Part shown: positions 1 through 19,891 of the stretch, in pieces
Layout: every line of letters begins with the position of its first letter
Numbering within the stretch: the first letter of the stretch is position 1
Sequence record: PQ850601.1
DNA from: Escherichia phage ElsieAttenhofer_Bas105
DNA length: 39,718 nt
Direction: 5' to 3' (one strand)
Notes under the pieces: generated by a model
What the model saw: the letters and a program-made list of their open reading frames with translations, nothing else
The model's database searches: none
Told to the model about the DNA's origin: nothing
Position numbers and translations under genes: made by a program

Positions 1-195
1 ATGATTGAGTTAGACTTCAAGAATGAGGCCCTTAAAGCCTCTCCTATCGTCGGGACCGCTGCGGCTGATGGTGCCAGTCGGTTCTTCTTCGGACTTACAC
101 TGAACGAATGGTTCTACGTTGCAGCTATAGCGTACACCGTTGTCCAGATTGGTGTGCTAGTCTACAAAACGATTAAAGGAGGTGGTAAAACATGA
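1..195 (+). CDS. Class II holin (T7 gene 17.5 homolog)
   Basis: 64-aa ORF with hydrophobic helices; core FFGLTLNEWFYVAAIAYTVVQIG closely matches remembered T7 gp17.5; GGAGG at 39709-39713 would serve as RBS if the sequence is circular. Confidence 0.85.
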   Translation: MIELDFKNEALKASPIVGTAAADGASRFFFGLTLNEWFYVAAIAYTVVQIGVLVYKTIKGGGKT

Positions 196-455
196 CGCAG
201 ATGGACTTAGAGAAGTTCCTCTTGATGCTAGATACTGAACGTGCTCGACTCATGCTGCAAGACCTGCGGGACGATTCTAAGCGTTCGCCTCAGCTTTACA
301 ACGCCATTGAGAAGCTGCTGGCTCGTCACAACTTTGTGTTAAGCAAGGTGTCTGTGGACGAGAAGACGCTGGCTGATATGGAGGCCCTGAACGCAGAGTA
401 CGATAAGGTGCTCTCCGCTACGGAAGATAATGACACTGGATATGGAGTACAGTAA
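192..455 (+). CDS. Terminase small subunit / DNA maturation protein A (T7 gene 18 homolog)
   Basis: 87-aa ORF; motif LxMLDT...RSPQLYNAIxKLLxRH matches remembered T7 gp18; ATGA overlap with holin stop; position between holin and Rz. Confidence 0.85.
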   Translation: MTQMDLEKFLLMLDTERARLMLQDLRDDSKRSPQLYNAIEKLLARHNFVLSKVSVDEKTLADMEALNAEYDKVLSATEDNDTGYGVQ

Positions 456-459
456 GCGT

Positions 460-512
460 TAGACTCAAGGTCATTACTATATGTAGTGGCCTTTATGGTT
501 AACACTAACTAG
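460..512 (+). promoter_or_regulatory. RNase III-type processing stem-loop (R18.5-like), copy 1 of a conserved element
   Basis: Stem AAGGTCATTAC (467-477) / GTAGTGGCCTT (483-493) with loop TATAT and two G-U pairs; conserved flanks TAGACTCAAGG and TTATGGTTAAC; same element recurs at 9843-9896 and 16779-16825 with compensatory changes. Confidence 0.5.
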
Positions 513-556
513 TGGAGGAGACTCTACGTGAAATCTGATAAACCGGGAGGGCAGCT

Positions 557-1009
557 ATGCTCGAATTTTTAAAGAGAGCGGCTCCGTGGTTACTTGCAGC
601 AGTGATGTTTGCTGGTGGCTACCACACCGCTAACAATAAGTGGGAGGCTAAGGTCAATGAAGAATACACCTCGAACCTTAAGGCATCGGAGGATACAAGG
701 CTTGCTGTCCAAGCTGAAGTCAACAAAGTGTCCAAACGGTTTCAGGACGAAATGTCCTCGCTGGAAGGTAGCACTGATAGGATTATTGCTGACCTTCAGT
801 CTGACAATAAGCGGTTGCGCATCCGAGTCAAACCAACGAGTGGAACCACGCAAAGTGACGGTCGATGCGTCATTGATGGTTACGCCGAACTTGACGAACG
901 AGATGCTAAACGTCTTATCTCCATCGGACTGAAAGGGGACGCTTGGATTAAAGCACTACAGGATACTATTCGCGAACTTAAACAAGACAAGGAGAAAGAC
1001 AATGGGTAA
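557..1009 (+). CDS. Rz-like i-spanin (T7 gene 18.5 homolog)
   Basis: 150-aa ORF; N-terminal TM segment then charged coiled-coil; start MLEFLKR and C-terminal DRDAKRL...KGDAWIKALQDTIRELK match remembered T7 gp18.5. Confidence 0.85.
   Translation: MLEFLKRAAPWLLAAVMFAGGYHTANNKWEAKVNEEYTSNLKASEDTRLAVQAEVNKVSKRFQDEMSSLEGSTDRIIADLQSDNKRLRIRVKPTSGTTQSDGRCVIDGYAELDERDAKRLISIGLKGDAWIKALQDTIRELKQDKEKDNG
657..932 (+). CDS. Rz1-like o-spanin lipoprotein embedded in +1 frame of the i-spanin gene (start uncertain)
   Basis: Alternate-frame ORF inside gene 18.5 encodes hydrophobic stretch KVALIGLLLTFSLTISGC with lipobox ISGC; in-frame ATG at 657 has GGGAGG 9 nt upstream; TTG at 702 (GGAGGA upstream) is an alternative start. 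Confidence 0.5.
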   Translation: MKNTPRTLRHRRIQGLLSKLKSTKCPNGFRTKCPRWKVALIGLLLTFSLTISGCASESNQRVEPRKVTVDASLMVTPNLTNEMLNVLSPSD

Positions 1010-1424
1010 TATTATTACTTTGAAAACTGACGTAGTTTGGCATTTTGCTACTGGCGCACCATCTGGACTGAAGAACGCATCCGGTCACTTGTTATCTGGT
1101 ACAATATATGTGAAGGTCCCAGCTAAAGAGGGACTCAGTGGTGTAAACTTCGTCGTTCGGTTCGCTGGTGAGTTCCCTACAGCCTCAGCTCATAAGTGGC
1201 GAGTGCAGCTTCGTAGACCCGATAACACTACCCTATCTTCCGTGACAGACACAGATGACCAGCAGTCATTCACCATTCGTGAGGCAGCCATCCATAGCTA
1301 CATAGCTAATACAGACGACCCGTTCGTTACTACTGGCATCACGCTTGGCATTGCAGTTACCGGGTCTGAGGACCTTACTCTGTCCTCCCTGACTGTTCGC
1401 GTTGACCGAATCTTTAACTCTTAA
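1002..1424 (+). CDS. Hypothetical protein, accessory ORF between spanins and large terminase (no T7 counterpart)
   Basis: 140-aa ORF with AAGGAG 11 nt upstream; overlaps gene 18.5 stop; same strand; no recognisable motif. Confidence 0.5.
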   Translation: MGNIITLKTDVVWHFATGAPSGLKNASGHLLSGTIYVKVPAKEGLSGVNFVVRFAGEFPTASAHKWRVQLRRPDNTTLSSVTDTDDQQSFTIREAAIHSYIANTDDPFVTTGITLGIAVTGSEDLTLSSLTVRVDRIFNS

Positions 1425-1436
1425 GAGGGGGAAGTA

Positions 1437-1607
1437 ATGATTAGAGTTAAATGCTTAAAGTCGGACTCAAATGGGATTCTTGAGGTGGGTTCAGTCTACT
1501 GGGTGGACTCGCTTGAAGACATTGACTCCTATGTGCATATTAGAGGAGGGCGATACATTGGTATGTTCCCCTCTAAGTGGTTTGAACCTAAGGAGGTGAA
1601 GCATTGA
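1437..1607 (+). CDS. Small hypothetical protein (56 aa)
   Basis: Own translation [56 protein letters not shown]; strong RBS AAGAGGGGGAAG upstream; stop overlaps the terminase start. Confidence 0.3.
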
Positions 1608-3367
1608 GTAAAGACTTAGTGGCGCGTCAGGCGCTAATGACTGCACGTATGAAGGCAGACTTCGTGTTCTTCCTGTTCGTCCTGTGGAAAGCTCTGTCAC
1701 TCCCAGTCCCGACTCGCTGTCAGATTGACATGGCGAAGAAACTATCGGCTGGGGACAACAGGCGCTTCATCCTACAGGCGTTCCGTGGTATAGGGAAGTC
1801 CTTTATTACGTGTGCCTTCGTTGTCTGGAAGCTATGGAACAACCCAGACTTGAAGTTCATGATTGTGTCGGCCTCAAAGGAACGAGCTGATGCTAACTCC
1901 ATCTTCATCAAGCGAATCATCGACCTCATGCCTCAGCTTCAGGAACTCAAACCTAAGCAGGGACAGCGAGATGCGGTTATCAGCTTCGACGTCGGACCAG
2001 CCAAGCCAGACCACTCACCTTCGGTTAAGTCCGTTGGTATCACTGGTCAGTTGACTGGTAGTCGTGCTGACATCCTGATTGCCGATGACGTGGAGGTTCC
2101 GAACAACTCAGCGACTCAGGCTGCCCGAGACCGTCTGTCAGAGCTTGTGAAGGAGTTCGACGCTATCCTGAAGCCGGGAGGTACAATCATCTATCTGGGT
2201 ACTCCTCAGAACGAGATGACCTTGTATCGTGAGCTGGAAGGCCGTGGGTACACCACTACTATCTGGCCTGCTCGTTATCCACGCGACAGGAAGGACTGGC
2301 AGTCTTACGGAGACCGTCTGGCTCCCATGCTTCAGGCAGAGCTTGAAGAGGACCCTGAGGCCTTCTATTGGCGTCCGACCGATGAAGTTCGATTCGACGA
2401 TACTGACCTGAAGGAACGTGAGCTGTCCTACGGTAAAGCTGGCTTCGCTCTACAGTTCATGCTTAACCCGAACCTAAGTGATGCTGAGAAGTACCCTCTG
2501 AAGCTCCGTGACCTTATCGTAGCCGACTTGGACCCAGCGTCCAGCCCAATGGTCTACCAATGGTTGCCTAACCCTCAGAACAAGCGTGAGGACGTTCCTA
2601 ACGTTGGACTCATGGGTGACTCATACCACACGTATCAAACTGTAGGTTCTGCCTTCAGTTCGTACACCCAGAAGATTTTGGTCATTGACCCTAGTGGTCG
2701 TGGTAAGGATGAAACTGGCTATGCGGTACTGTACCAGCTCAACGGCTACATCTTCGCTATGGAAGTTGGTGGTATGCGTGGTGGTTATGAAGACTCTACG
2801 CTGGAAGTACTAGCTAAGATTGGTCGTAAGTGGAAGGTCAACGAATACGTCATTGAGGGTAACTTCGGTGATGGTATGTACCTTGAGCTATTCAAGCCTG
2901 TAGCGGCCCGTATCCATCCTGCGGCTGTAACTGAAGTGAAGAGTAAGGGTCAGAAAGAACTCCGAATCTGTGACGTTCTGGAGCCTATCATGGGGTCTCA
3001 CCGACTTATCGTTAACGCTGCTGCTATCGTCCAAGACTACCAGTCGGCCTCTGATAAGGATGGTGTTCGTAACCCTATCTACTCTCTCTTCTACCAGATG
3101 ACACGTATCTCTCGTGAACGTGGAGCCTTGGCACACGATGACCGACTTGACGCGCTGGCTATAGGTGTACAGTTCTTCGTTGAGTCTATGGCTAAGGATG
3201 CCAACAAGGGCGAACGTGAAGTCACTGAGGAGTGGCTGGAGGAACAGATGGAGAACCCACGGAAAGGCTTCGAGTCCATCCACACTGAGTTCTGGGACAA
3301 TGGGGTCCGGGTAACTCACGATACGGACGACGAGCTGGGACTAGGGTCATACGTTACGTTCCACTAG
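1604..3367 (+). CDS. Terminase large subunit (T7 gene 19 homolog), TTG start
   Basis: 587-aa ORF colinear with remembered T7 gp19 ([19 protein letters not shown] Walker A-like, [24 protein letters not shown] nuclease); N-terminal alignment and TAAGGAGG 7 nt upstream support the TTG start at 1604. Confidence 0.95.
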
Positions 3368-3461
3368 CTGAATGAATAATTATAGGTGAAAGCTGCATGA
3401 ATACGCGGTTAGTAACCTATAGTTACTACCAGTCTAACCTACTGTTTTACAAGGAGTTTTG

Positions 3462-3484
3462 ACTTAACTATCACTATAGGGAAG
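3462..3484 (+). promoter_or_regulatory. Phage RNAP promoter (phiOR-like, near right genome end)
   Basis: TTAACTATCACTATAGGGAAG matches the 12-copy promoter consensus; predicted +1 G at 3479. Confidence 0.7.
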
Positions 3485-3664
3485 ACCCCCGGTTACTTAT
3501 AGTATTACTGTAGTGAATATACATATGCAGACTTTATGCAAGACCTTAGGAGGCAGACTCCGAGTTCTTACCTAAGGCTTGCACCGATGGAAGGAGGGTG
3601 ATATTAATCATAATCCCTCCAATACAGATAGTCACCGACCATAGATACAGGAGGTATGTAGCAT

Positions 3665-3823
3665 ATGGCAAAGACCAAAGCTGTACTTAAAGCTCTGGCG
3701 ACCAATCGAGCTACATACAGGTTTCTTGCTGCTGTTCTACTTGCTGCTGGCGTTACTGCTGGAAGTCAGTGGGTCGGGTGGGTCGAGACTCTCGTATGTT
3801 CTCTGGTCTCTCAGTGTAATTAA
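3665..3823 (+). CDS. Small hydrophobic ORF (52 aa), possible gene 19.5-like
   Basis: ATG with GGAGG 10 nt upstream, downstream of the phiOR-like promoter; translation MAKTKAVLKALATNRATYRFLAAVLLAAGVTAGSQWVGWVETLVCSLVSQCN; position only. Confidence 0.25.
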   Translation: MAKTKAVLKALATNRATYRFLAAVLLAAGVTAGSQWVGWVETLVCSLVSQCN

Positions 3824-3982
3824 CGCAATCATGGTAACAATCAACGAAAGTAAGACCTAAGGTCAGTTCATAGCTGACGCTACTCTACTGACCTTAGCTA
3901 CTGTAGTCAAGGACTTTAGGTAACACCTTAAGAGAAACTCACTTAGGGTCATCCTACTTATTGGTCTATCCTAGTGTCGCCT

Positions 3983-4022
3983 GACCTACGGTCCTTGACC
4001 TACAGTGGCTGTGACCTACAGT
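3983..4022. repeat. Three direct copies of TGACCTACRGT in the genome-end region
   Basis: TGACCTACGGT at 3983-3993, TGACCTACAGT at 3996-4006 and 4012-4022; related CTACCTACAGT copies near 4285-4318. Confidence 0.6.
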
Positions 4023-4108
4023 AGTGACGATGAGTTTTGGACCAAAAGTTTGAGACCACATCTCACAGTTCAAGAACCTCAAGTCTCCCCATAGGCCCTC
4101 TTTTAGTC

Positions 4109-4250
4109 CAGACCAATAGTCCCTACCCATAGACCTTTGGTCTACACCTCTAGTCTATCATAAGGTTGGACCGGTTGTCAAGACTTCAGGTCAACTATAG
4201 GTCTAGGCTATGGCTGGAGGTTGGGACGATAGGTAGGGACTATTGGTCTG
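4109..4250. repeat. Perfect 19-bp inverted repeat pair flanking a 104-bp spacer
   Basis: CAGACCAATAGTCCCTACC at 4109-4127; exact reverse complement GGTAGGGACTATTGGTCTG at 4232-4250. Confidence 0.7.
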
Positions 4251-4375
4251 CCTCTGAGTCCCTATCTGTATCAGACCATAAGTCACTACCGAGCTACCTA
4301 CAGTCTAACTACCTACAGTCATCGACCATCGGTAATGCCGCTACCTACTGTATAAATTACCATGATAAACAGTTG

Positions 4376-4404
4376 TTGACAGTAGGTCTAACTTTGGTTT
4401 AATA
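4376..4404 (+). promoter_or_regulatory. Candidate sigma70 early promoter (A1-like)
   Basis: TTGACA at 4376-4381, 17-bp spacer, weak -10 TTAATA/TTTAAT around 4398-4404; first of three TTGACA elements upstream of ocr. Confidence 0.35.
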
Positions 4405-4514
4405 GCTTCCGTCAACACGACACGGCAACAACCGGATAGTGAAGACGCCGGGTCATCCCGGTTAAGTAGACAGCCTGATAAGTCATACGAACAACAGGCA
4501 GATGACAGAAGTAG

Positions 4515-4543
4515 TTGACAAGATGTAAGACTTAAAGTAGTAT
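4515..4543 (+). promoter_or_regulatory. Candidate sigma70 early promoter (A2-like)
   Basis: TTGACA 4515-4520, 17-bp spacer, -10 TAGTAT 4538-4543. Confidence 0.5.
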
Positions 4544-4669
4544 GATTCACCAAGTAGTACAGCGAGCCGGAACTGATAAACTACATCGGCTATGCGGAGT
4601 GACCAGCGCGGATATCTGGTCTACTGAGTAAGACGGTAGGTTACTACAGAGAGCGAGCTAAGAAAGTGA

Positions 4670-4698
4670 TTGACAAGATGGCTTGACTGTAGTAACTT
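4670..4698 (+). promoter_or_regulatory. Candidate sigma70 early promoter (A3-like)
   Basis: TTGACA 4670-4675, 17-bp spacer, -10 TAACTT 4693-4698; shares TTGACAAGATG with the 4515 element. Confidence 0.4.
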
Positions 4699-4898
4699 AT
4701 ACGGCAAGCAAGATTAGTGAGTCCCAACACTGAAACGGGATAGCGCGGCGACGACAGCCAATGCGAATGCTCTTTAACAATCTGGATAAACTCTTAATGT
4801 GCGCCGATAGCGACTAACTACAGGGTCTTTGAGTCTACATCTGAAGGCCCTGACTGATAGTCACTAACATACACAAACAACTTTGAGAGGATATAATT

Positions 4899-5243
4899 AT
4901 GGAACGTAACGCTAACGCATACTATGAGCTGCTGGCTGCAACTGTTGAAGCATTTAACGAGCGCATTCAGTACGACGAAATAGCTGAAGGAGATGATTAT
5001 CACGATGCGCTGCATGAAGTCGTAGACGATATGGTCCCGCACTACTACCACGAGATCTTCACGGTGATGGCTGCTGATGGTATTGACCATGAGTTCGAAG
5101 ACTCTGGGCTGATGCCTGATACCAAGGACGTAACGCGTATACTACAGGCTCGCATTTATGAGGCACTGTATAACGATGTGTCTAATAGCTCTGAGGTGGT
5201 CTGGTTCGAGGCTGAAGAGAGCGACGAGGAGGCCTGCGAGTGA
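4899..5243 (+). CDS. ocr: Ocr-like DNA mimic anti-restriction protein (T7 gene 0.3 homolog)
   Basis: 114-aa highly acidic protein; [43 protein letters not shown] nearly identical to remembered T7 Ocr; first gene after the early promoters. Confidence 0.85.
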
Positions 5244-5399
5244 GGGTAACTTATGGTCTCTGCCAGCATCACGTCACCAACGCCCGGATTATGATCAAGA
5301 CCGGGCAGTTAACCCACGATGCGACTATGCGTCACCTGAAGGCGGTCTATGAGGGCCGCAAGCGTATCCACGACAGTTTGCACGCTGAGGACAAGTAAC

Positions 5400-5525
5400 A
5401 TGTACCAGATAACTTATAGCAGTGAACAGGAGTTCTACGATGGGTGCTACGAAATGATGAAGCGCGGGGCTTGCTACGTGGCGAATCACCATAGCCTGAC
5501 CATAACGCTGACAGGCGGGTACTGA
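5400..5525 (+). CDS. Small early hypothetical protein (41 aa)
   Basis: ATG with GAGGA upstream; own translation MYQITYSSEQEFYDGCYEMMKRGACYVANHHSLTITLTGGY; position of T7 genes 0.4-0.6. Confidence 0.3.
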   Translation: MYQITYSSEQEFYDGCYEMMKRGACYVANHHSLTITLTGGY

Positions 5526-5681
5526 GTGATAAACGAGAGGTCATCGACTGATAGGTGGCCTCAAAGATTACCACTTGCATTAATAGGGGTTAACTATGAG
5601 TGTGGGATATTGGGTATGCCTAGCGCCAGTTATCTGGATGATAGGATATGGGATATACGATTGTATTAAACGGAAATCACT

Positions 5682-5879
5682 ATGAGTATATTACTATTGA
5701 TAGCCATAGGCTATGGACTTATCGCCTACGTGCTGATGAGAGACCTTAACAAGGCGCGTAAAGTCTACAAATTCAACTATGTACGTCCGGGCCGCTGGAC
5801 TGTACGTCAACCTAACGGACGATTCATGCGCAACTTAGCGAACGTCTGGGATATAGCAACACTTGGGAGCAAACTGTAA
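5682..5879 (+). CDS. Small early membrane protein (65 aa)
   Basis: N-terminal hydrophobic helix ILLLIAIGYGLIAYVLM followed by basic tail; same strand, tightly packed. Confidence 0.45.
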   Translation: MSILLLIAIGYGLIAYVLMRDLNKARKVYKFNYVRPGRWTVRQPNGRFMRNLANVWDIATLGSKL

Positions 5880-6271
5880 TGACTATGTCAAATCTGGTAC
5901 ACGCAATGGACTCAATCATATCTCTTCGCACATTCACTGATAAGAACGGCGTAGAGTGGAAGTACGTCGGCACGGACTCTCGCGGTCGCAACTACTGGGA
6001 GAAGACCGGGAACAAGACCGCTTATGTGCATCGACACTCTTCACACTCCGCACGTCAACAGCAGGAGCGGTACCGGGTACTGCAAGCAAGACTCCGGGCA
6101 GAGGGCCATAAGTCGGAGCTGATGTGTCTGGCGTATGGTGGACGACCAATCACCGACGATGGTAAACTTTTGGTCTCAGGCTGGAAGGCGATAGACCAAC
6201 GGTCAACCATCAAGCACACGACTCATGGTGACTTCAGTCATCTTCACGCTAATCCACTGATATGCAAGTGA
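5879..6271 (+). CDS. Early hypothetical protein (130 aa) at the position of T7 gene 0.7
   Basis: ORF immediately upstream of gene 1, TAATG overlap with the previous ORF; no kinase motifs; unknown function. Confidence 0.5.
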   Translation: MTMSNLVHAMDSIISLRTFTDKNGVEWKYVGTDSRGRNYWEKTGNKTAYVHRHSSHSARQQQERYRVLQARLRAEGHKSELMCLAYGGRPITDDGKLLVSGWKAIDQRSTIKHTTHGDFSHLHANPLICK

Positions 6272-6276
6272 TTCAG

Positions 6277-6299
6277 ACTTAACTATCACTATAGGACTC
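6277..6299 (+). promoter_or_regulatory. Phage RNAP promoter upstream of gene 1
   Basis: TTAACTATCACTATAGGACTC; predicted +1 at 6294. Confidence 0.65.
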
Positions 6300-6368
6300 A
6301 AGGTCTAAGACTCCAAGTGAAAGATCAAAGAGACTTTAAGTGAAAGACTAATAACAAGGACTTTAAGT

Positions 6369-9050
6369 ATGAGCGTCATCTCTATTGACAAACACGACTT
6401 CTCTGATGTGTCAAACGCCATTGAGCCGTTTAACCTGCTGGCCGACCACTACGGGCAAGACCTTGCAGTCAAACAGCTTCAGCTTGAGCATGAGGCATAC
6501 ACTGAAGGCGAGCGACGTTTCATCAAGAACCTTGAGCGCCAGACCGAGCGCGGGGAACTGGCAGACAATCAGGTCGCCAAGCCTTTGATGCAGACTCTGG
6601 TTCCTAAGATTGCGCAAGCCGTCAAGGAGTGGCACGAAGGTCCAGACGGGAAGCTGTCAACCTCTCGTCCTAGCGTAGCGTTCACCATGTTGAGTACTGA
6701 AGAGAAGGCCGTCAAGGATCGCTCTCTGCGTATCTCTTGCGAGTCTGCTGCGGTCATCATACTGAAGGTCATCCTCTCCAAGCTGGTCAAGCCTGAAGGG
6801 ATACCGATTACACCGATGGCCTCCGCGATAGGTCGCACACTTGAGGATGAAATCCGATTCGGTCGCATTCGTGACAAGGAGAAGGATCACTTCAAGAAGG
6901 CGATAGCAGATAACCTGAACAAGAGAGCCGGGGCATCATACAAGAAAGCCTACATGCAAGCGGTTGAGACCTCCATGTTGGAGCAAGGTCAACTGGAAGA
7001 TGCGTGGGGGACTTGGAGTCCGACCGAGGCTGTCCACGTTGGAATCAAGATGCTTGAGATTGTCATCCAGTCTACACAACTGGTCGAGCTTAAGCGTTAC
7101 GGTGCTGGCAATGCAGCGGCTGACGTTGAGATGGTCCACCTGTCAGACTTCTGGGTCAAGAAGATGGCACAACGCGGCTTCAGCCTTGCGGGTATCGCTC
7201 CAGTCTACCAACCTTGCGTCGTTCCGCCTAAGCCGTGGACTGGTGTCGTAGGCGGTGGGTACTGGGCCAAAGGTCGCAGACCACTCCCACTGATTCGCTT
7301 AGGGTCTAAGTCAGCGGTGGCACGTTACGAAGACGTGTACATGCCTGAAGTCTATGACGCTGTGAATATCATCCAGAATACGCCTTGGAAAGTTAACAAG
7401 AAGGTTCTGGAAGTGGTGAACATGGTCGAGAAGCTGAACAACACGCCTATTGATGACATACCTCAGATGGAACCGCTGAAGCCTGAGGACTATGCGGGTG
7501 AGACTGAAGAGGAACTCAAGGCATGGAAGAAGGCTGCTGCTGGTATCTACCGCCGAGAGAAGGCCAGGCAGTCACGTAGATTGTCACTGAGCTTTATCGT
7601 TAACCAAGCGAACAAGTTCTCTCAGTTCAAGGCCATCTGGTTCCCGTACAACATGGACTGGCGCGGTCGCGTCTACGCTGTGCCGATGTTCAACCCTCAG
7701 GGTAATGACATGCAAAAGGGTCTCCTGACTCTGGCAGTAGGTAAGCCTATTGGTGCTGATGGTTTCAAATGGCTGAAGGTCCACGGTGCAAACTGTGCGG
7801 GTATTGATAAAGTAACCTTCGAGGAGCGCATCAAGTGGGTGGAAGATAACCACGACAACATCATGGCTACCGCTAAGGCACCGATGGACAGCATTGAGTG
7901 GTGGGGCAAGTTAGACTCTCCGTTCTGCTTCCTAGCGTTCTGCTTCGAGTATGCTGGCGTAATGCATCACGGATTGTCTTACTCCTGCTCGCTGCCGATA
8001 GCATTCGATGGGTCCTGCTCTGGGATTCAGCACTTTAGCGCGATGCTTCGTGATCACATCGGTGGACATGCAGTAAACCTGACGCCTTCCGGTAAGGTAC
8101 AAGACATCTACCGCATCGTGTCTGACCGCATTGAGGAAGAGCTTAAAGTCCTGCTGGTTAACGGCACGGACAACGAGATGGTAACTCACGAGGACAAGAA
8201 AACTGGTGAGATTACCGAGCGTCTCAAACTGGGGACACGAGAACTGGCCCGTCAGTGGCTGACTTACGGTATGTCACGTAAGGTCACTAAGCGTTCAGTC
8301 ATGACTCTGGCCTACGGGTCGAAAGAGTACGGCTTCGCAGACCAAGTATACGAGGACATCGTGATGCCTGCGATTGACTCAGGGTCTGGCGCTATGTTCA
8401 CCGAACCAAGCCAAGCGTCCCGCTTCATGGCTAAGATGATTTGGGAAGCTGTGAGCGTGACCGTAGTTGCTGCGGTTGACGCGATGAAGTGGCTTCAAGG
8501 TGCTGCCAAGCTGCTGGCTGCTGAAGTGAAAGACAAGAAGACTGGAGAAATCCTGAAGCCTTGCCTTCCAGTACACTGGGTAACACCTGATGGGTTCCCG
8601 GTCTGGCAGGAATACCGCAAGAAGGATACCACTCGTCTGAACCTGATGTTCTTAGGGTCATTCAACCTTCAGCCTACCGTCAACAAAGGCACTAAGAAAG
8701 AGCTGGATAAGCACAAGCAGGAGTCAGGCATTAGCCCGAACTTCGTCCACTCACAAGATGGTAGCCACCTCCGCAAGACTGTAGTCCACACTCACCGCAA
8801 GTATGGCGTAATGTCATTCGCAGTGATTCACGATAGCTTCGGGACCATCCCGGCTGACGCTGAGTATCTGTTCCGTGGTGTCCGTGAGACGATGGTCGAG
8901 ACCTACCGCGACAACGATGTGCTGCTGGACTTCTACGAGCAGTTTGAATACCAGCTTCATGAGAGCCAGCGCGATAAGTTGCCAGAGCTTCCGAAGAAAG
9001 GTAAACTGAATATCGAAGACATCTTGTCTTCAGACTTTGCATTCGCTTAA
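6369..9050 (+). CDS. Single-subunit DNA-directed RNA polymerase (T7 gene 1 homolog)
   Basis: 893-aa ORF colinear with remembered T7 RNAP (FNPQGNDMxKGLLTLA, motif C VIHDSFGT, C-terminal SDFAFA); specificity-loop region reads GSFNLQPTVNKGTKKELDKHKQ. Confidence 0.97.
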   Translation: MSVISIDKHDFSDVSNAIEPFNLLADHYGQDLAVKQLQLEHEAYTEGERRFIKNLERQTERGELADNQVAKPLMQTLVPKIAQAVKEWHEGPDGKLSTSRPSVAFTMLSTEEKAVKDRSLRISCESAAVIILKVILSKLVKPEGIPITPMASAIGRTLEDEIRFGRIRDKEKDHFKKAIADNLNKRAGASYKKAYMQAVETSMLEQGQLEDAWGTWSPTEAVHVGIKMLEIVIQSTQLVELKRYGAGNAAADVEMVHLSDFWVKKMAQRGFSLAGIAPVYQPCVVPPKPWTGVVGGGYWAKGRRPLPLIRLGSKSAVARYEDVYMPEVYDAVNIIQNTPWKVNKKVLEVVNMVEKLNNTPIDDIPQMEPLKPEDYAGETEEELKAWKKAAAGIYRREKARQSRRLSLSFIVNQANKFSQFKAIWFPYNMDWRGRVYAVPMFNPQGNDMQKGLLTLAVGKPIGADGFKWLKVHGANCAGIDKVTFEERIKWVEDNHDNIMATAKAPMDSIEWWGKLDSPFCFLAFCFEYAGVMHHGLSYSCSLPIAFDGSCSGIQHFSAMLRDHIGGHAVNLTPSGKVQDIYRIVSDRIEEELKVLLVNGTDNEMVTHEDKKTGEITERLKLGTRELARQWLTYGMSRKVTKRSVMTLAYGSKEYGFADQVYEDIVMPAIDSGSGAMFTEPSQASRFMAKMIWEAVSVTVVAAVDAMKWLQGAAKLLAAEVKDKKTGEILKPCLPVHWVTPDGFPVWQEYRKKDTTRLNLMFLGSFNLQPTVNKGTKKELDKHKQESGISPNFVHSQDGSHLRKTVVHTHRKYGVMSFAVIHDSFGTIPADAEYLFRGVRETMVETYRDNDVLLDFYEQFEYQLHESQRDKLPELPKKGKLNIEDILSSDFAFA

Positions 9051-9827: not shown

Positions 9828-9845
9828 ACTATCACTATAGGATTA
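9823..9845 (+). promoter_or_regulatory. Phage RNAP promoter (phi1.1-like)
   Basis: CTAAACTATCACTATAGGATT; predicted +1 at 9840. Confidence 0.7.
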
Positions 9846-9896
9846 GACTCAAGGTCATGACTCAAAGTCGTGGCCTTCATGATTAACCCTAACTCA
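9843..9896 (+). promoter_or_regulatory. RNase III-type processing stem-loop (R1.1-like), copy 2
   Basis: Stem AGGTCATGAC (9852-9861) / GTCGTGGCCT (9867-9876), loop TCAAA, two G-U pairs; conserved flanks as in copy 1. Confidence 0.5.
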
Positions 9897-12242: not shown

Positions 12243-12401
12243 ATGACTAAGGTTGAGAAGAAATACATCGTGGAGCTTGAGGGTCGCGTTCAGTCCTTCG
12301 AGGTTCCGGTATACGCAAAGTCTCTTGAAGAGGCTACCCTGAAGTCCCAAGAGTATGAGGATGCAGGGTTTGTGGTCGGACGGATTCGTCCTGAGACCTA
12401 A
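12243..12401 (+). CDS. Host RNA polymerase inhibitor (T7 gene 2 homolog)
   Basis: 52-aa ORF not in the supplied track; [52 protein letters not shown] shares SFEVP(I/V)YA...L(D/E)EA...AGF(E/V)V.R(I/V)RP with remembered T7 gp2. Confidence 0.7.
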
Positions 12402-13612: not shown

Positions 13613-14100
13613 GCAAGAAGTTTAAACTGTTAAAAGATGTGTTTGGCTGGCCTCGTGGGACTATCGTTACCGAGTGTGAGAAAGACCCCGCACCAACGTC
13701 AGGAATGACCCTAGTTGAGTGCCAGACTCCAGGAGAATACAAACATGGGTCTAAAGGCCACAATACTCAGCCTGAGGGTATGTGGGGAGCATGGGTCGTT
13801 GATTACAAACTTCAGGAAATCAAGCCGGAAGAGAAACTCACTGGTGTACAGACCACTCAAGTCCTGCCAGCTTCTAGCGTACCACCTGTGACTGTGAAGC
13901 GTGAAGTCCTGACCATCGACAAGATTGGTGTAGGCCAGACGTTCATCGTCCACGGTAAACCTGAGGAAGTGTACGTTAAGATTAGTAACTCACACGTCTT
14001 CAACCATAAGCGCCTCCAGATGCACACCACGGATGCACAGCGCTTCACCCAGCACCTGAATCTGGTGGTCGTAGAATTGGTGGTGTACAATGGTAAGTAA
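13609..14100 (+). CDS. Hypothetical protein (163 aa) inserted between endonuclease I and lysozyme
   Basis: ORF with AAAGGAG RBS, ATGA overlap with gene 3 stop; T7 has no gene here; no recognised motif. Confidence 0.55.
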   Translation: MSKKFKLLKDVFGWPRGTIVTECEKDPAPTSGMTLVECQTPGEYKHGSKGHNTQPEGMWGAWVVDYKLQEIKPEEKLTGVQTTQVLPASSVPPVTVKREVLTIDKIGVGQTFIVHGKPEEVYVKISNSHVFNHKRLQMHTTDAQRFTQHLNLVVVELVVYNGK

Positions 14101-16763: not shown

Positions 16764-16781
16764 GCTATCACTGTAGGATAG
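16759..16781 (+). promoter_or_regulatory. Phage RNAP promoter (variant)
   Basis: ACTAAGCTATCACTGTAGGATAG; +1 at 16776. Confidence 0.5.
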
Positions 16782-16825
16782 ACTCAAGGTCATTCATTTC
16801 GAGTGGCCTTTATGATTAGACTATA
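16779..16825 (+). promoter_or_regulatory. RNase III-type processing stem-loop, copy 3
   Basis: Stem AAGGTCATTC (16786-16795) / GAGTGGCCTT (16801-16810), loop ATTTC; conserved flank TAGACTCAAGG. Confidence 0.5.
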
Positions 16826-16834
16826 GGAGACATT

Positions 16835-17236
16835 ATGATTGACTGTAGTGAGTGGACCGGGTGCCGAGATAAGTTCGGCTATGGCATGCGCAGGGTCAAT
16901 GGGAAAGTCCGTAGGCTACATCTCATAGCATATGAGGAAGCTAATGGTCCAATACCAAAGGGACTGGTTGTCCGTCATAAGTGTGACAACCCGTCATGTT
17001 ATAACCCTGATCACCTAGAGCTTGGGACACGAGCTGATAACGTTAAGGACCGGGATGTCCGTGGACGTATAGCAAAGGGTGTAAAAGTTGGATGTGCCAA
17101 GTTGACACCTGAAATTGTAGCAGAGGCTAAGAGATTGTACGCTTCTGGTGGATGGACTCACCGCTCTCTGGGGGAGAAATACGGCGTAGGGCATAGGACA
17201 ATAGCCAGAGCGATTGGAGGTGCTACATGGATTTAA
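16835..17236 (+). CDS. HNH homing endonuclease
   Basis: 133 aa; HNH core RHKCDNPSCYNPDHLELGTRADN with Cys-rich zinc ligands; free-standing between the gene 4 and gene 5 modules; 3' end overlaps the gene 5 start. Confidence 0.85.
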   Translation: MIDCSEWTGCRDKFGYGMRRVNGKVRRLHLIAYEEANGPIPKGLVVRHKCDNPSCYNPDHLELGTRADNVKDRDVRGRIAKGVKVGCAKLTPEIVAEAKRLYASGGWTHRSLGEKYGVGHRTIARAIGGATWI

Positions 17237-19395
17237 GTAACGTTTATGGCTCCGACATCGAGACCAACGGTCTCCTTGACACCGTGTCCCAGTTCCATTG
17301 TGGGGTCCTGATTAAGGCCGAGTCGAATGAGACCCTTAAGTATGGGGTAGCGCCGATGGTCGGTATCGTCGGTGGCTTCAAAGAGTATGTACAGAAGGTG
17401 GAAGAAATTGCTGCAACGCCTACGGGTATGCTGGTCTTCCATAACGGTATCAACTATGACGTCCCGGCTATAGACAAGCTGAAGCGTTTGTACTTTGGGA
17501 AACGATTTAACTTCCCGAAACACAAGATGATTGATACCTTGGTGCTGGGCCGCTTGATGTATCCCAACATTAAGTTCTCAGACATGGGCGCGGTGAAAGC
17601 TGGTCGTCTGCCACCTAAGATGATGGGACGCCAGTCTCTTGAGGCTTGGGGCTATCGTCTCGGTGAGATGAAGGGTGAGTACAAACACGATTACGTTGCC
17701 AAGTGCAAGGCCGAAGGTATCGAATATAAGTCTGGGGACGAATGGTTGTTCCCGTCTCAGGAGATGCTGGACTATAACGTTCAGGATGTTGTGGTTACAC
17801 TGGCATTGTTCAAGAAATTCCTGACTGACAAGTATTACTTCCAGTCTGAACAGTTTGCTTTCGAACAGATTTATGCGCTGCGTCTGGAACATGATGCTGC
17901 GTGGACCTGTGCGAAGATGGAACGTAACGGCTATCCGATGAACACCGAGATGGTCGAAGGCTTATATCGTGAACTCACTGTCAAACGTGCGGAGTTGCTG
18001 GACAAGCTGCGCTCGACTTTCGGTAGCTGGTATGCACCGAAGGGAGGCAAGGAGTTCTTCAAGCACCCAAGGACAGGTAAGGACCTTCCGAAGTATCCGC
18101 GAGTCGTGTATCCTAAGGTCGGTGGCATCTTTAAGAAGCCGAAGAACAAAGCTCAACGCTTAGGTCTTGAGCCTTGTGAACTCGATACGCGAGACACGAT
18201 GGAGGGAGCACCATTCACGCCAATCACTTACGTTGAGTTTAATCCGGGAAGCGGAGACCACTTAGCGAAAGTCCTGATGGAGCGTGGCTGGGAGCCTGTG
18301 GACTTCACTGACACCGGGAAACCTGTAGTCGATGACGAGACGTTGGAACACGTTAAGTTACCAGACGCAGAGGCTCAGGCTTGCGTAGAGCTGGTCCGTG
18401 AGTATCTGGTGGTCCAGAAGCGCATCGGTCAGGCGGCTGAAGGTAAGAACGCATGGTTGAAACTTGTGGGTCCAGACGGACGTATGCACGGTTCAATCAA
18501 CCCTTGTGGAGCAGTAACCGGACGTGCGACCCATAGTTCACCAAATATGGCTCAGGTCCCGGCTAACGGTGCTCCGTATGGTGAGACTTGCCGTGGTGCT
18601 TTCGGTGCAGCGTGGAACAAGAAGGACGGTAAGCCAGACCCTTGGATTCAAGTGGGCGTGGATGCTTCAGGTCTTGAGCTTCGTTGTCTGGGGAACCGAG
18701 CGACTCCGTTTGATGGTGGTGAATACGCCAAGACTGTGGTCGAAGGTGACATCCACTGGGCCAACGCAGTCAACGCTGGGCTAGCACCTAACGTCCCACG
18801 CGACAAGTCGAGCCACGACCACGATGCTTTCCGTGATAACGCTAAGACGTTCATCTATGCGTTCCTGTATGGTGCAGGGGCCGCGAAGATTGGACTGATA
18901 GTTGGCGGTGGTAAGAAGGAAGGTGCTGCCCTGATGAAGAAATTCATTGAGGGTACACCAGCTATCAAGGATCTGCGAGAGGCTGTGCAGAACACGCTCA
19001 TCTCAGAGTCGAAGTGGGTAGATGGTGAGAACATCGTGAAGTGGAAACGGCGCTGGCTGAAAGGTCTGGATGGTCGTCGCATTCACATCCGGTCTCCACA
19101 CTCAGCACTGAACGCATTACTTCAGGGTGATGGTGCGGTTGTCTGTAAGCACTGGATTGTCGAGACCGAGCGTATGCTCGAAGAGGCCGGGTATGTCCAC
19201 GGCTGGGAAGGAGACTTTGCGTACATGGCATGGGTTCACGACGAATTGCAGATTGCGTGTCGTACTCAGGAGATTGCCGAAGAAGTCGTCAAGATTGCTC
19301 AACTTGCTATGCGTAAGGTGGGTGAGTTCTATAACTTTAAATGTGTCCTTGATACCGAAGGTAAGATTGGACCAACGTGGAAGGAGTGTCACTAA
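17227..19395 (+). CDS. DNA polymerase (T7 gene 5 homolog, family A)
   Basis: 722 aa; exonuclease motif DIETNGL, FHNG..YDVP, palm motifs RDNAKTFIYAFLYGAG and VHDELQ, colinear with remembered T7 gp5. Confidence 0.97.
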   Translation: MDLSNVYGSDIETNGLLDTVSQFHCGVLIKAESNETLKYGVAPMVGIVGGFKEYVQKVEEIAATPTGMLVFHNGINYDVPAIDKLKRLYFGKRFNFPKHKMIDTLVLGRLMYPNIKFSDMGAVKAGRLPPKMMGRQSLEAWGYRLGEMKGEYKHDYVAKCKAEGIEYKSGDEWLFPSQEMLDYNVQDVVVTLALFKKFLTDKYYFQSEQFAFEQIYALRLEHDAAWTCAKMERNGYPMNTEMVEGLYRELTVKRAELLDKLRSTFGSWYAPKGGKEFFKHPRTGKDLPKYPRVVYPKVGGIFKKPKNKAQRLGLEPCELDTRDTMEGAPFTPITYVEFNPGSGDHLAKVLMERGWEPVDFTDTGKPVVDDETLEHVKLPDAEAQACVELVREYLVVQKRIGQAAEGKNAWLKLVGPDGRMHGSINPCGAVTGRATHSSPNMAQVPANGAPYGETCRGAFGAAWNKKDGKPDPWIQVGVDASGLELRCLGNRATPFDGGEYAKTVVEGDIHWANAVNAGLAPNVPRDKSSHDHDAFRDNAKTFIYAFLYGAGAAKIGLIVGGGKKEGAALMKKFIEGTPAIKDLREAVQNTLISESKWVDGENIVKWKRRWLKGLDGRRIHIRSPHSALNALLQGDGAVVCKHWIVETERMLEEAGYVHGWEGDFAYMAWVHDELQIACRTQEIAEEVVKIAQLAMRKVGEFYNFKCVLDTEGKIGPTWKECH

Positions 19396-19685
19396 TGGCT
19401 ATTACTAAACGTATGCGAGTTTCGTTCTCGCTGGGTACTGTGTCGTCAACTGAAGACGTGGAGAACTTCAAGAAGACTCTATGTGAGCTGAGCCGTAAGG
19501 TCCTCAACGGAGAGAAGACCACTGGTTTTGAACGTAAGATGGTAGAGGTTGGTGTGACTGAAGGTCTGGAAGCTGTAGTCGAATTGGTCTTCAAGAAAGG
19601 TATCGTCGATGGGCTGAAAGAAGACCTGAGCAGTTACTCTGACATGCCGAGCTTTGGTAACTTCCGGGTGGAGTTCGAACGATGA
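19395..19685 (+). CDS. Gene 5.5-like protein (T7 gp5.5 binds host H-NS)
   Basis: Start MAITKRMRVSF resembles remembered T7 gp5.5 MAMTKRFKVSF; TAATG overlap with gene 5 stop; the track ORF starts earlier at 19377 but the internal ATG fits better. Confidence 0.65.
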   Translation: MAITKRMRVSFSLGTVSSTEDVENFKKTLCELSRKVLNGEKTTGFERKMVEVGVTEGLEAVVELVFKKGIVDGLKEDLSSYSDMPSFGNFRVEFER

Positions 19686-19891
19686 GTGAATACTTACGGG
19701 TCCTAGCGGCCCTTAAGTCCTGCCCGAAGACCTTCCAGTCAAACTATGTGCGCAACAACGCTGCACTTGTGGCTGAGGCTGCGAGTCGTGGACATCTAAG
19801 CTGCCTGTCTATGGACGGGCGTAACAACGGTGCGTGGGAGATTACCGCTGCTGGCACCAAGTTCCTGAACCAACACGGAGGCTGTCTATGA
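19682..19891 (+). CDS. Gene 5.7 homolog
   Basis: 69 aa; LKSCPKTFQSNYVRNNAALVAEAASRGHLSCL...GAWEITAAGTKFL nearly identical to remembered T7 gp5.7. Confidence 0.85.
   Translation: MSEYLRVLAALKSCPKTFQSNYVRNNAALVAEAASRGHLSCLSMDGRNNGAWEITAAGTKFLNQHGGCL

Follow-up and report, generated by a model that had tools for sequence, protein, structure and literature searches.

In phage T7, the early region between the anti-restriction gene ocr and the gene for the phage RNA polymerase (gene 1) contains gp0.7 (T7K), a protein composed of a kinase domain and a host shut-off domain. The corresponding interval of Escherichia phage ElsieAttenhofer_Bas105 (PQ850601.1) spans positions 5,244 to 6,271 of the 39,718-nucleotide (nt) stretch of DNA that was analyzed as a whole and is hereafter referred to as the window. 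A first-pass annotation, made from the letters alone, described this interval as devoid of a gene 0.7-type kinase and as carrying instead four small open reading frames (ORFs), the longest of which encodes a protein of 130 amino acids (aa). This description raises the question of whether the kinase is really missing and, if so, whether the small genes have taken its place. The present analysis supports the former proposition and not the latter: with a probability of roughly 0.7, the interval represents the usual class I block (early and host-transcribed) of a Kayfunavirus, i.e., of a K1F/EcoDS1-type relative of T7, in the common kinase-less configuration. All features of the early block described below, from the first host promoter to gene 1, lie on the plus strand.

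Absence of the kinase and the genus-wide layout

The kinase was sought over the entire window. A tblastn search with T7 gp0.7 gave a best E value of 3.2. Furthermore, a hidden Markov model (HMM) of the kinase domain (T7 gp0.7 residues ~1–240), constructed from 13 sequences of T7 and Kayfunavirus kinases and run on every stop-to-stop frame of the six frames, reached a best E value of 0.18 (6.7 bits), and an HMM of the shut-off (DNA-binding) domain reached 2.1 in the same six frames. Applied as a positive control to a related locus with a kinase, the kinase HMM reached 5.5e-125. Neither HMM revealed a remnant of the kinase or of the shut-off domain in any frame of the window. Because tblastn and the HMMs were negative while the control worked, the absence is considered real; the first-pass annotation was correct in this respect, and no intact homolog that it might have missed was found. 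The likeness between T7 gp0.7 and the window is confined to the genomic neighborhood.

A megablast search with window 4850–6400 matched 224 phage records, all of which belong to Kayfunavirus, the genus of K1F-like phages within the T7 group; the best matches were Klebsiella phage SEA1f and Escherichia phage EcoDS1, with 94% DNA identity. The window displays the class I order of this genus, i.e., ocr, gp0.35, a variable slot, gp0.37, gp0.38, a phage promoter, and gene 1, the encoded proteins being homologous. In full, the block is made up of small cassettes in the order ocr, gp0.35, a 41-aa protein (p41), an RNase III hairpin, a 29-aa peptide (p29), a 65-aa protein (p65, which is gp0.37), the 130-aa protein (gp0.38), the phage promoter, and gene 1. 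The same layout has been annotated in K1F, EcoDS1, SH3, Peacock, EPr2, and others, and the same set of small ORFs was called by other annotators in phages Peacock and EPr2. The gene order of K1F and EcoDS1 is 0.3, 0.35, 0.36, 0.37, 0.38, 1, with families as in the window and without gp0.7. The gp0.37 proteins of EcoDS1 and SEA1f are ~92–94% identical to the 65-aa ORF of the window, and EcoDS1 Gp0.38 (132 aa) matches the core of the 130-aa ORF with 96% identity. By contrast, the K1F annotation contains neither p41 nor p29 and has a 55-aa gp0.36 in the slot, and K1F gp0.38 is an 86-aa core-only form, whereas the window form comprises 130 aa with an N-terminal module. The kinase-less layout was thus already known from the annotated K1F and EcoDS1 records and now extends to over 200 phage genomes. 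Most members of Kayfunavirus share it, and it is not a peculiarity of the present phage.

The window represents the whole phage genome in circularly permuted form. Its position 1 lies inside the holin gene (a T7 gp17.5 homolog, 1–162), the T7 proteins gp17.5 to gp19.5 map to 1–3811, and the remaining T7 gene order runs from 4899 onward; the EcoDS1 terminal repeat maps near 4061–4249, the physical left end of the genome. Owing to the circular permutation and a left end near 4061, the interval constitutes the left-end, host-transcribed early region. Two matches to EcoDS1-type host promoters lie upstream of the block and a phage promoter (6277–6299) lies downstream, in agreement with the earlier assignment of these ORFs to the early (class I) genes.

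The distribution of the kinase (phrog_15752/phrog_2828 for T7 gp0.7) was compared across 35 related early loci, obtained from GenBank phages and IMG/VR contigs. A short kinase of 244 aa, which comprises the kinase domain only (phrog_15752, 4.5e-114) and lacks the shut-off domain, was present in 11 of the 35 loci (GW1, CHRF_20041, ST37, CR8, and seven IMG/VR loci). It is located between p41 and p29/p65, upstream of the 65-aa and gp0.38 genes. All 35 loci contain the p65 gene and the gp0.38 core, irrespective of the kinase. Since p65 and gp0.38 coexist with the kinase, they are regarded as core early genes of the genus and not as kinase substitutes, and the notion that the phage carries them "instead" of a kinase is not borne out: in the 11 loci the kinase sits beside these same genes, and the kinase-less arrangement is simply the common one. 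Among phage records in general, the short kinase (at least 80% identity) occurs in ~42 as compared with 222 carrying the gp0.38 family; roughly four fifths of the gp0.38-bearing group are kinase-less, like the window. The p65 family is found in 262 records, and T7 gp0.7 matches 913 phage records, some of which also carry gp0.38. A depletion of Ser/Thr/Tyr in kinase-bearing relatives, as has been reported for T7K-encoding phages, was also considered and discarded, the content of these residues being the same in orthologs from kinase-bearing and kinase-less phages. In the proposed mechanism, host transcription shut-off would rest on the retained homologs of gp2 (12255–12392) and gp5.7 (19682–19888) and not on a kinase.

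The early region of T7 has the order 0.3, 0.4, R0.5, 0.5, 0.6A/B, 0.7, R1, 1. Common to T7 and the window are the host promoters, ocr, a gp0.4-type gene that overlaps the ocr stop, an R0.5-type hairpin followed by small membrane peptides, and the RNA polymerase gene in the last position. The window differs from T7 in that it has neither a gp0.7 kinase nor a shut-off domain, in that gp0.38 has no T7 counterpart, and in that p29, p65, and p41 show no relationship to gp0.5 or gp0.6A. It also lacks an R1-type hairpin before gene 1; this stretch folds no better than shuffled sequence and contains a phage promoter instead. Beyond the early region, BLAST homologs (E ≤ 1e-3) of T7 gp0.4, 0.5, 0.6A, 0.7, 1.2, 1.4, 1.5, 4.3, 4.5, 4.7, 5.3, 5.9, 6.3, and 7 were not found in the whole window. 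This set includes the dGTPase, Lon, and RecBCD inhibitors, and the non-homologous ORFs at these places may be analogs.

The small genes and their products

All four ORFs of the first-pass annotation occur exactly where it placed them between ocr and gene 1, but a gene of 52 aa at 5240–5398 had escaped it. Coding was evaluated by Nei–Gojobori ratios of the proportions of nonsynonymous and synonymous differences (pN/pS) in all three frames of each ORF, using 7–31 distinct relatives per ORF from the related loci. The own-frame pN/pS is 0.23 for ocr, 0.30 for the 52-aa ORF, 0.16 for p41, 0.26 for p29, 0.35 for p65, and, within the 130-aa protein, 0.28 for the core and 0.31 for the N-terminal part, whereas the other two frames yield ~0.9–1.8 and contain stop codons. 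Furthermore, every ORF is provided with a Shine–Dalgarno-like motif or a stop/start overlap. Neighboring genes overlap stop-to-start, through GTGA (ocr/52-aa ORF), ATGA (p29/p65), and TAATG (p65/gp0.38), or lie one base apart, and such overlaps suggest translational coupling. Purifying selection, together with the Shine–Dalgarno motifs and overlaps, implies that all of the small ORFs are very probably translated. Their designation as genes is accordingly upheld, with own-frame pN/pS values of 0.16–0.35 for the small ORFs.

The 52-aa protein encoded at 5240–5398 corresponds to K1F gp0.35. Its gene has a GTG start at 5240, which overlaps the ocr stop, and GAGGAGG 7 nt upstream. As judged from profile comparison, gp0.35 is homologous to the FtsZ inhibitor gp0.4 of T7 but has diverged from it. 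It matches phrog_5058 at 8e-27 and, with weaker scores, phrog_25044 and phrog_7202, the last being the T7 gp0.4 family; T7 gp0.4 matches the same PHROGs in reverse order, so that the cross-matches are reciprocal. Family alignments of gp0.35 and gp0.4 were built from related loci and compared by hhalign, yielding a probability of 94.5% (E 7.9e-8) over 40 of ~51 columns; as controls, the reversed gp0.4 alignment yielded 0.1% and 30 column shuffles yielded at most 2.3%. The proteins are of nearly the same length (52 aa and, in T7, 51 aa), with ~33% identity, and the YGL motif of T7 gp0.4 is retained in gp0.35. T7 gene 0.4 likewise begins at the gene 0.3 stop, directly after it in the early operon. 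Unlike T7 gp0.4, gp0.35 is basic, with an isoelectric point (pI) of 9.7. Phage CR8, which has p65 and gp0.38 homologs, carries a protein that is more clearly of the gp0.4 type and groups with the gp0.4 family of T7.

Substitutions at V15, V22, W28, M32, L35, or Y39 of T7 Gp0.4 have been reported to abolish toxicity or the interaction with FtsZ (2026, PMC13423816). These residues align to V12, I19, H26, M30, L33, and Y37 of gp0.35, respectively; five of the six residues for FtsZ-dependent toxicity are conserved or conservatively replaced, with the exception of W28, which corresponds to H26. Infection by K1F has been reported to result in multi-ring filaments and an FtsZ block, and the authors of that 2022 study found no gp0.4 homolog by BLAST and described the responsible peptide as unknown (PMC9372555). 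The homolog was missed because pairwise BLASTP sees nothing. Thus, gp0.35 is probably the FtsZ-blocking peptide of K1F, which would bind FtsZ and block host division. The identification of gp0.35 as a gp0.4 homolog is the one piece of this analysis that adds to the literature, and it renders the question of the K1F FtsZ inhibitor testable with one clone or one deletion.

The next gene, p41 (5400–5525), encodes a soluble, slightly acidic protein of 41 aa (phrog_33188, 1.3e-6), with GAGGA 8 nt before its ATG. It is 80–98% identical in 24 loci, without stop codons, and its pN/pS of 0.16 is the lowest of the set. Downstream of the hairpin, p29 (5596–5685) encodes a single-pass membrane peptide of 29 aa with a grand average of hydropathy (GRAVY) of 0.79 and a basic C-terminus, IKRKSL; AGGGG is located 6 nt upstream. 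Its frame is kept by 20 distinct variants in relatives, with a pN/pS of 0.26 versus 1.3 in the other frames. The 65-aa protein (5682–5879; phrog_2385, 2e-31) is K1F gp0.37, designated "gp0.6" in EcoDS1 and "0.71" in CR8. It consists of an N-terminal hydrophobic membrane helix and a basic 42-aa tail and has a pI of 11. The tail (residues 24–65) is nearly invariant across the genus and CR8, and its pN/pS of 0.17 at a pS of 0.36 indicates that it is the protein that is constrained; at a pN/pS of 0.76, the membrane helix is close to neutral evolution. Relatives of p65 at ~45% identity are found in phages infecting Klebsiella, Erwinia, Yersinia, and Dickeya, and a search of 5.8 billion proteins returned 116 clusters, all of unnamed proteins and nearly all from phage genomes or phage-sized contigs (~40 kb).

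A relationship of p29, p65, and p41 with T7 gp0.5 or gp0.6A was considered and rejected, the hhalign probability for p65 remaining below 1% despite the "gp0.6" label in EcoDS1. In particular, p65 and T7 gp0.6A, the MreB inhibitor, gave no tblastn match and an hhalign probability of 0.4%, and they belong to separate PHROGs (phrog_2385 and phrog_8393, respectively). The chances appear evenly balanced that both p29 and p65 are inner-membrane proteins whose basic C-termini face the cytoplasm and that the invariant p65 tail contacts a conserved partner. Some T7-group (Teseptimavirus-like) genomes (L048–L050) additionally encode proteins distantly related to p41 (C-terminal ITLTGGY) and to p65 (membrane helix, R-E-x-NGRF), whereby these orphan families extend beyond Kayfunavirus.

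The 130-aa protein is divided into an N-terminal accessory module (residues 1–46; 5879–6016), predicted to form a helix followed by three β strands, and a conserved core (6017–6271), which is K1F gp0.38 and matches phrog_7066 at 9.6e-45 over residues 43–130. The core comprises ~84 aa, is located directly upstream of gene 1 in all 35 loci, and has a pN/pS of 0.22–0.28. Conservation within the family is highest in its tail, HTTxGDFSHLHxNPLIxK, with T, G, F, and L invariant. The family comprises 139 clusters, the majority of which derive from contigs of ~39–40 kb, and the lengths of 83–86, 108, 130, and 139 aa reflect a constant core with optional N-terminal modules. The module of the window is carried by a minority (26 of 222 phage records, at a query coverage of at least 80%). 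In several relatives it is replaced by an endonuclease VII/HNH-type gene between p65 and the gp0.38 core (L007 3476–3898; L013 3198–3617; also L027, L030, and L034). gp0.38 is basic (pI 9.8), with an Arg-rich amphipathic first helix. The AlphaFold model of the full-length protein is weak, with a predicted local distance difference test score (pLDDT) of 60; three β strands are located at residues 18–46, and the pLDDT is ~80 over residues 21–40 (10-residue block means). The core-only model, obtained with a more diverse alignment, forms a bundle of three helices, with a pLDDT of 78.9 and a predicted template modeling score of 0.60.

Fold searches of PDB and BFVD with gp0.38 revealed no informative neighbor. 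Foldseek with the full-length model retrieved nothing from PDB at E ≤ 0.001, and Pfam, NCBIfam, and PDB sequences gave no real match; matches of the N-terminal module to "phiSA1p31" (E 0.1) and CBM_20 (E 0.03) were below threshold. A profile search of 1.84 billion representatives returned 13 matches and characterizes the family as narrow and phage-only; two long matches (P0129 and P0130) were set aside as tandem-repeat proteins with scores inflated by repetition. The fold search of BFVD returned family members only, plus a marginal protein of Pseudomonas phage Phi-S1. This protein (M4H450, 84 aa, from a T7-like phage) resembles the gp0.38 core with a Foldseek E value of 0.4, a probability of 0.69, and 26% identity, and it may be a distant member of the family. 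The earlier description of the 130-aa protein as unknown and free of kinase motifs stands; neither it nor the 65-aa protein has characterized relatives, and homology and fold searches gave no functional lead. Tentatively, and at clearly less than even odds, gp0.38 might be a small basic helical host-takeover factor with an invariant unstructured C-terminal peptide that docks on a conserved host protein or nucleic-acid machine, possibly together with p65.

The RNase III hairpin and the cassette slot

The 70 nt between p41 and p29 (slot 5525–5595) fold as a hairpin with a z score of −2.3. The element at 5525–5576 resembles the T7 RNase III processing sites R0.5 and R1 in sequence and fold, and it also marks an empty cassette slot. 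With both T7 sites it shares a flanking GTGATA...GATTA(T/C)CACTT box and a GGTC.../...GGCC stem, and stem variants in relatives keep the pairing (GAGGTCATC/GGTGGCCTC, GAGGCCAC/GTGGTCTC, and CAGGTCATC/GGTGGCCTG). An HMM was built from five seeds, including window 5525–5576, T7 R0.5, and T7 R1. In T7 it identifies 1429–1479 (a seed), 3102–3149, 5852–5891, 13855–13902, 18503–18574, and 36818–36860, the R1 interval also being a seed. These six intervals are consistent with the published positions of R0.5, R1, R1.1, R4.7, R6.5, and R18.5. In the window it identifies 456–506, 5525–5576 (the seed, with an E value of 2.5e-11 by construction), 9843–9889, and 16777–16818. An Rfam scan of 3400–6500 gave no match. 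From its box, stem, and fold, the hairpin at 5525–5576 is judged to be homologous to the T7 RNase III sites.

The slot is empty in the window; in relatives it contains the 244-aa kinase, a 115-aa helix-turn-helix-like protein (p115), or a small membrane protein. A copy of the hairpin follows each optional cassette (p115 or kinase) in these relatives, as observed at 1971–2019 and 3123–3172 of L008 and at 978–1026 and 1416–1467 of L010. The hairpin repeats presumably act as recombination joints for cassette exchange, and RNase III-site repeats flanking optional cassettes suggest how T7-like phages shuffle their early genes. In the proposed course of events, host RNA polymerase would transcribe the block from two promoters at 4515–4706 and host RNase III would cut the early transcript at ~5550, which would probably separate an ocr-gp0.35-p41 message from a p29-p65-gp0.38(-gene 1) message. 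Of the products, ocr would block restriction and gp0.35 would block FtsZ.

Two annotated frames at this site appear questionable. A 47-aa ORF with a GTG start (5526–5669), the "unknown product" of EcoDS1, was rejected because it overlaps the hairpin and is read, in its 3′ part, in a frame other than that of p29, which is under selection; the EcoDS1 coding sequence (CDS) itself (L001 1493–1636) looks wrongly annotated on the same grounds. An 81-aa CDS of E. coli phage JSS1 (L005 1211–1456) also looks wrong, as it spans two frames that are separate in PE3-1.

Alternative readings and flanking elements

Several alternatives to an ordinary kinase-less block were weighed. That the shortest ORFs, of 41 and 29 aa, are untranslated chance ORFs is highly improbable. 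Both are indeed very short and without a Pfam or NCBIfam match, and GenBank records vary, some (such as SEA1f) leaving them unannotated and EcoDS1 annotating the different 47-aa frame. However, pN/pS is 0.16 for p41 and 0.26 for p29 in their own frames as opposed to 1.3–1.6 in the others, and the open frame is kept in 22 of 22 distinct p41 sequences and in 14 of 15 distinct p29 sequences. Both genes have Shine–Dalgarno motifs, p29 overlaps the start of p65, and the alternative frame overlaps the RNase III hairpin. A recent loss of the kinase from the present phage by deletion, with the 70-nt gap as its scar, is likewise improbable. It would fit a gap located exactly where relatives carry the kinase, and the near-identical hairpin repeats flanking each cassette could mediate such a deletion. 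By contrast, no frame contains a kinase remnant, and ~80% of gp0.38-bearing records are kinase-less, including K1F and EcoDS1 with the same single hairpin. Furthermore, in nine of the 11 kinase-bearing loci the first cassette is also different (SAMase, not ocr), and in most kinase-bearing loci the N-terminus of the RNA polymerase is more diverged (63–95% versus 94–100% identity). These differences in the first cassette and the polymerase N-terminus suggest lineage-level mosaicism rather than recent loss.

The remaining alternatives concern function. It is unlikely that the small ORFs and the 130-aa protein perform the function of the missing kinase/shut-off protein as a takeover or anti-defense device specific to kinase-less phages. 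The small ORFs do occupy the T7 0.5–0.7 position and are early genes; gp0.38 is basic and helical and lies directly upstream of gene 1, like the shut-off domain of gp0.7, which Kayfunavirus kinases lack; and the T7 kinase has been described as a broad anti-defense factor (PMC13645617), so that a phage without it may need other tools. However, p65 and gp0.38 adjoin the kinase in 11 of the 35 loci, their presence being independent of its absence, and their sequences, including the Ser/Thr/Tyr content, show no systematic difference between kinase-bearing and kinase-less phages. The hhalign probability between gp0.38 and the shut-off domain is also below 1% with narrow and with diverse alignments. 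Only slightly less doubtful is the proposal that gp0.38 is a stand-alone analog of the shut-off domain, which would bind DNA, shut off host transcription, and, in phages that have a kinase, might guide it to nucleic-acid-bound targets. gp0.38 occupies the genomic position of that domain and is basic, with its Arg-rich, amphipathic first helix; Kayfunavirus kinases stop at ~residue 244; some T7-like phages retain a shut-off remnant as a separate ORF of 71 aa; and the shut-off domain of T7 gp0.7 has DNA-binding activity and is by itself toxic (PMC13645617). Yet neither sequence nor profile similarity links the two, and descent of gp0.38 from a split-off shut-off domain was rejected at hhalign probabilities of 0.7–0.9% with a T7-only alignment and 0.2% with a diverse one (T7, Kvp1, Klebsiella, ESh12, SRT7, Katbat, and IME15). 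gp0.38 has no DNA-binding motif, its conservation peaks in the tail and not in the basic helix, and no solved or modeled shut-off structure was found for comparison. Of the same low likelihood is a coupled takeover/anti-defense module of p29, p65, and gp0.38, i.e., of two peptides anchored in the membrane plus one soluble, basic protein of helical structure, which would act through the p65 and gp0.38 tails on a conserved enterobacterial target and perform part of the T7 kinase/shut-off job. More generally, host-takeover or anti-defense roles of the small early genes are plausible. The genus is large, therapeutically used, and mostly kinase-less, and it always keeps gp0.37 and gp0.38; given that the T7 kinase is now regarded as a broad anti-defense weapon, these two proteins are reasonable first candidates in screens for early countermeasures.

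The preferred reading, an ordinary Kayfunavirus class I block whose genes act as outlined above, must be set against several opposing points. The co-occurrence of p65 and gp0.38 was judged on loci retrieved through p65, which makes the test a biased one, and no functional homolog of p41, p29, p65, or gp0.38 was found. The link between gp0.35 and gp0.4 depends on profiles and synteny, with no match in pairwise BLASTP, and gp0.35 has a His at the position aligned to T7 W28, a residue at which substitution by L abolishes FtsZ binding. The gp0.38 tail is modeled at low confidence, and the idea of a docking peptide derives from conservation and predicted disorder. Finally, the HMM matches of the window site, R0.5, and R1 arise by construction, the independent support coming from the other matches in T7 and the window, and RNase III cleavage at 5525–5576 is deduced from homology to the T7 sites.

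As for the flanking elements, the putative host (σ70) early promoter at 4515–4552 is the counterpart of the second annotated host RNA polymerase promoter of EcoDS1 (92% match) and includes a TTGACA-17-TAGTAT match to the consensus, and that at 4670–4706 is the counterpart of the third (95% match). The ocr gene (gp0.3; 4899–5243) encodes a DNA-mimic anti-restriction protein of 114 aa (Pfam ocr 8.6e-33; phrog_2568 1.4e-54) with 63% identity to T7 gp0.3. The promoter at 6277–6299 is the first phage-RNA-polymerase promoter after the left end, closes the small-gene block, and is identical at 23 of 23 positions to the EcoDS1 phi promoter before gene 1; its core, CTATCACTATAGG, occurs at nine sites in the window (3472, 6287, 9833, 11540, 21216, 24034, 25040, 29603, and 37380). 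Gene 1 (6369–9050) encodes a T7-type single-subunit RNA polymerase of 893 aa, with 62% identity to T7 gp1 over its full length.

The first cassette of the block also varies among relatives, comprising ocr, a T3-type SAMase, or, in L007 and the like, a different protein of ~175 aa with no ocr or SAMase match. The SAMase was observed in nine of the 11 kinase-bearing loci and in none of the 24 kinase-less loci, and this linkage probably represents two anti-defense cassettes that are distributed by lineage. In Salmonella phage ST37 (L006 2153–3082), and also in ST35, a single 309-aa CDS annotated as SAMase contains SAMase residues 1–144 followed by kinase residues 51–244, and it looks like a natural SAMase–kinase fusion via deletion of the intervening genes. 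Two phages bear the name JSS1: a Salmonella phage (PMC12345140) and an E. coli O153 Kayfunavirus (KX689784.2), the latter without a kinase and matching the window. The papers on the anti-Dnd kinase "JSS1_004" concern the Salmonella phage, which has a gp0.7 homolog and is not the relative of the window; the shared name is a coincidence. Outside the early region, an HNH endonuclease gene at 16841–17230, between the primase/helicase and DNA polymerase genes, adjoins an RNase III-like hairpin; its product is 48% identical to T7 gp7.7 and is also matched by gp2.8 and gp3.8.

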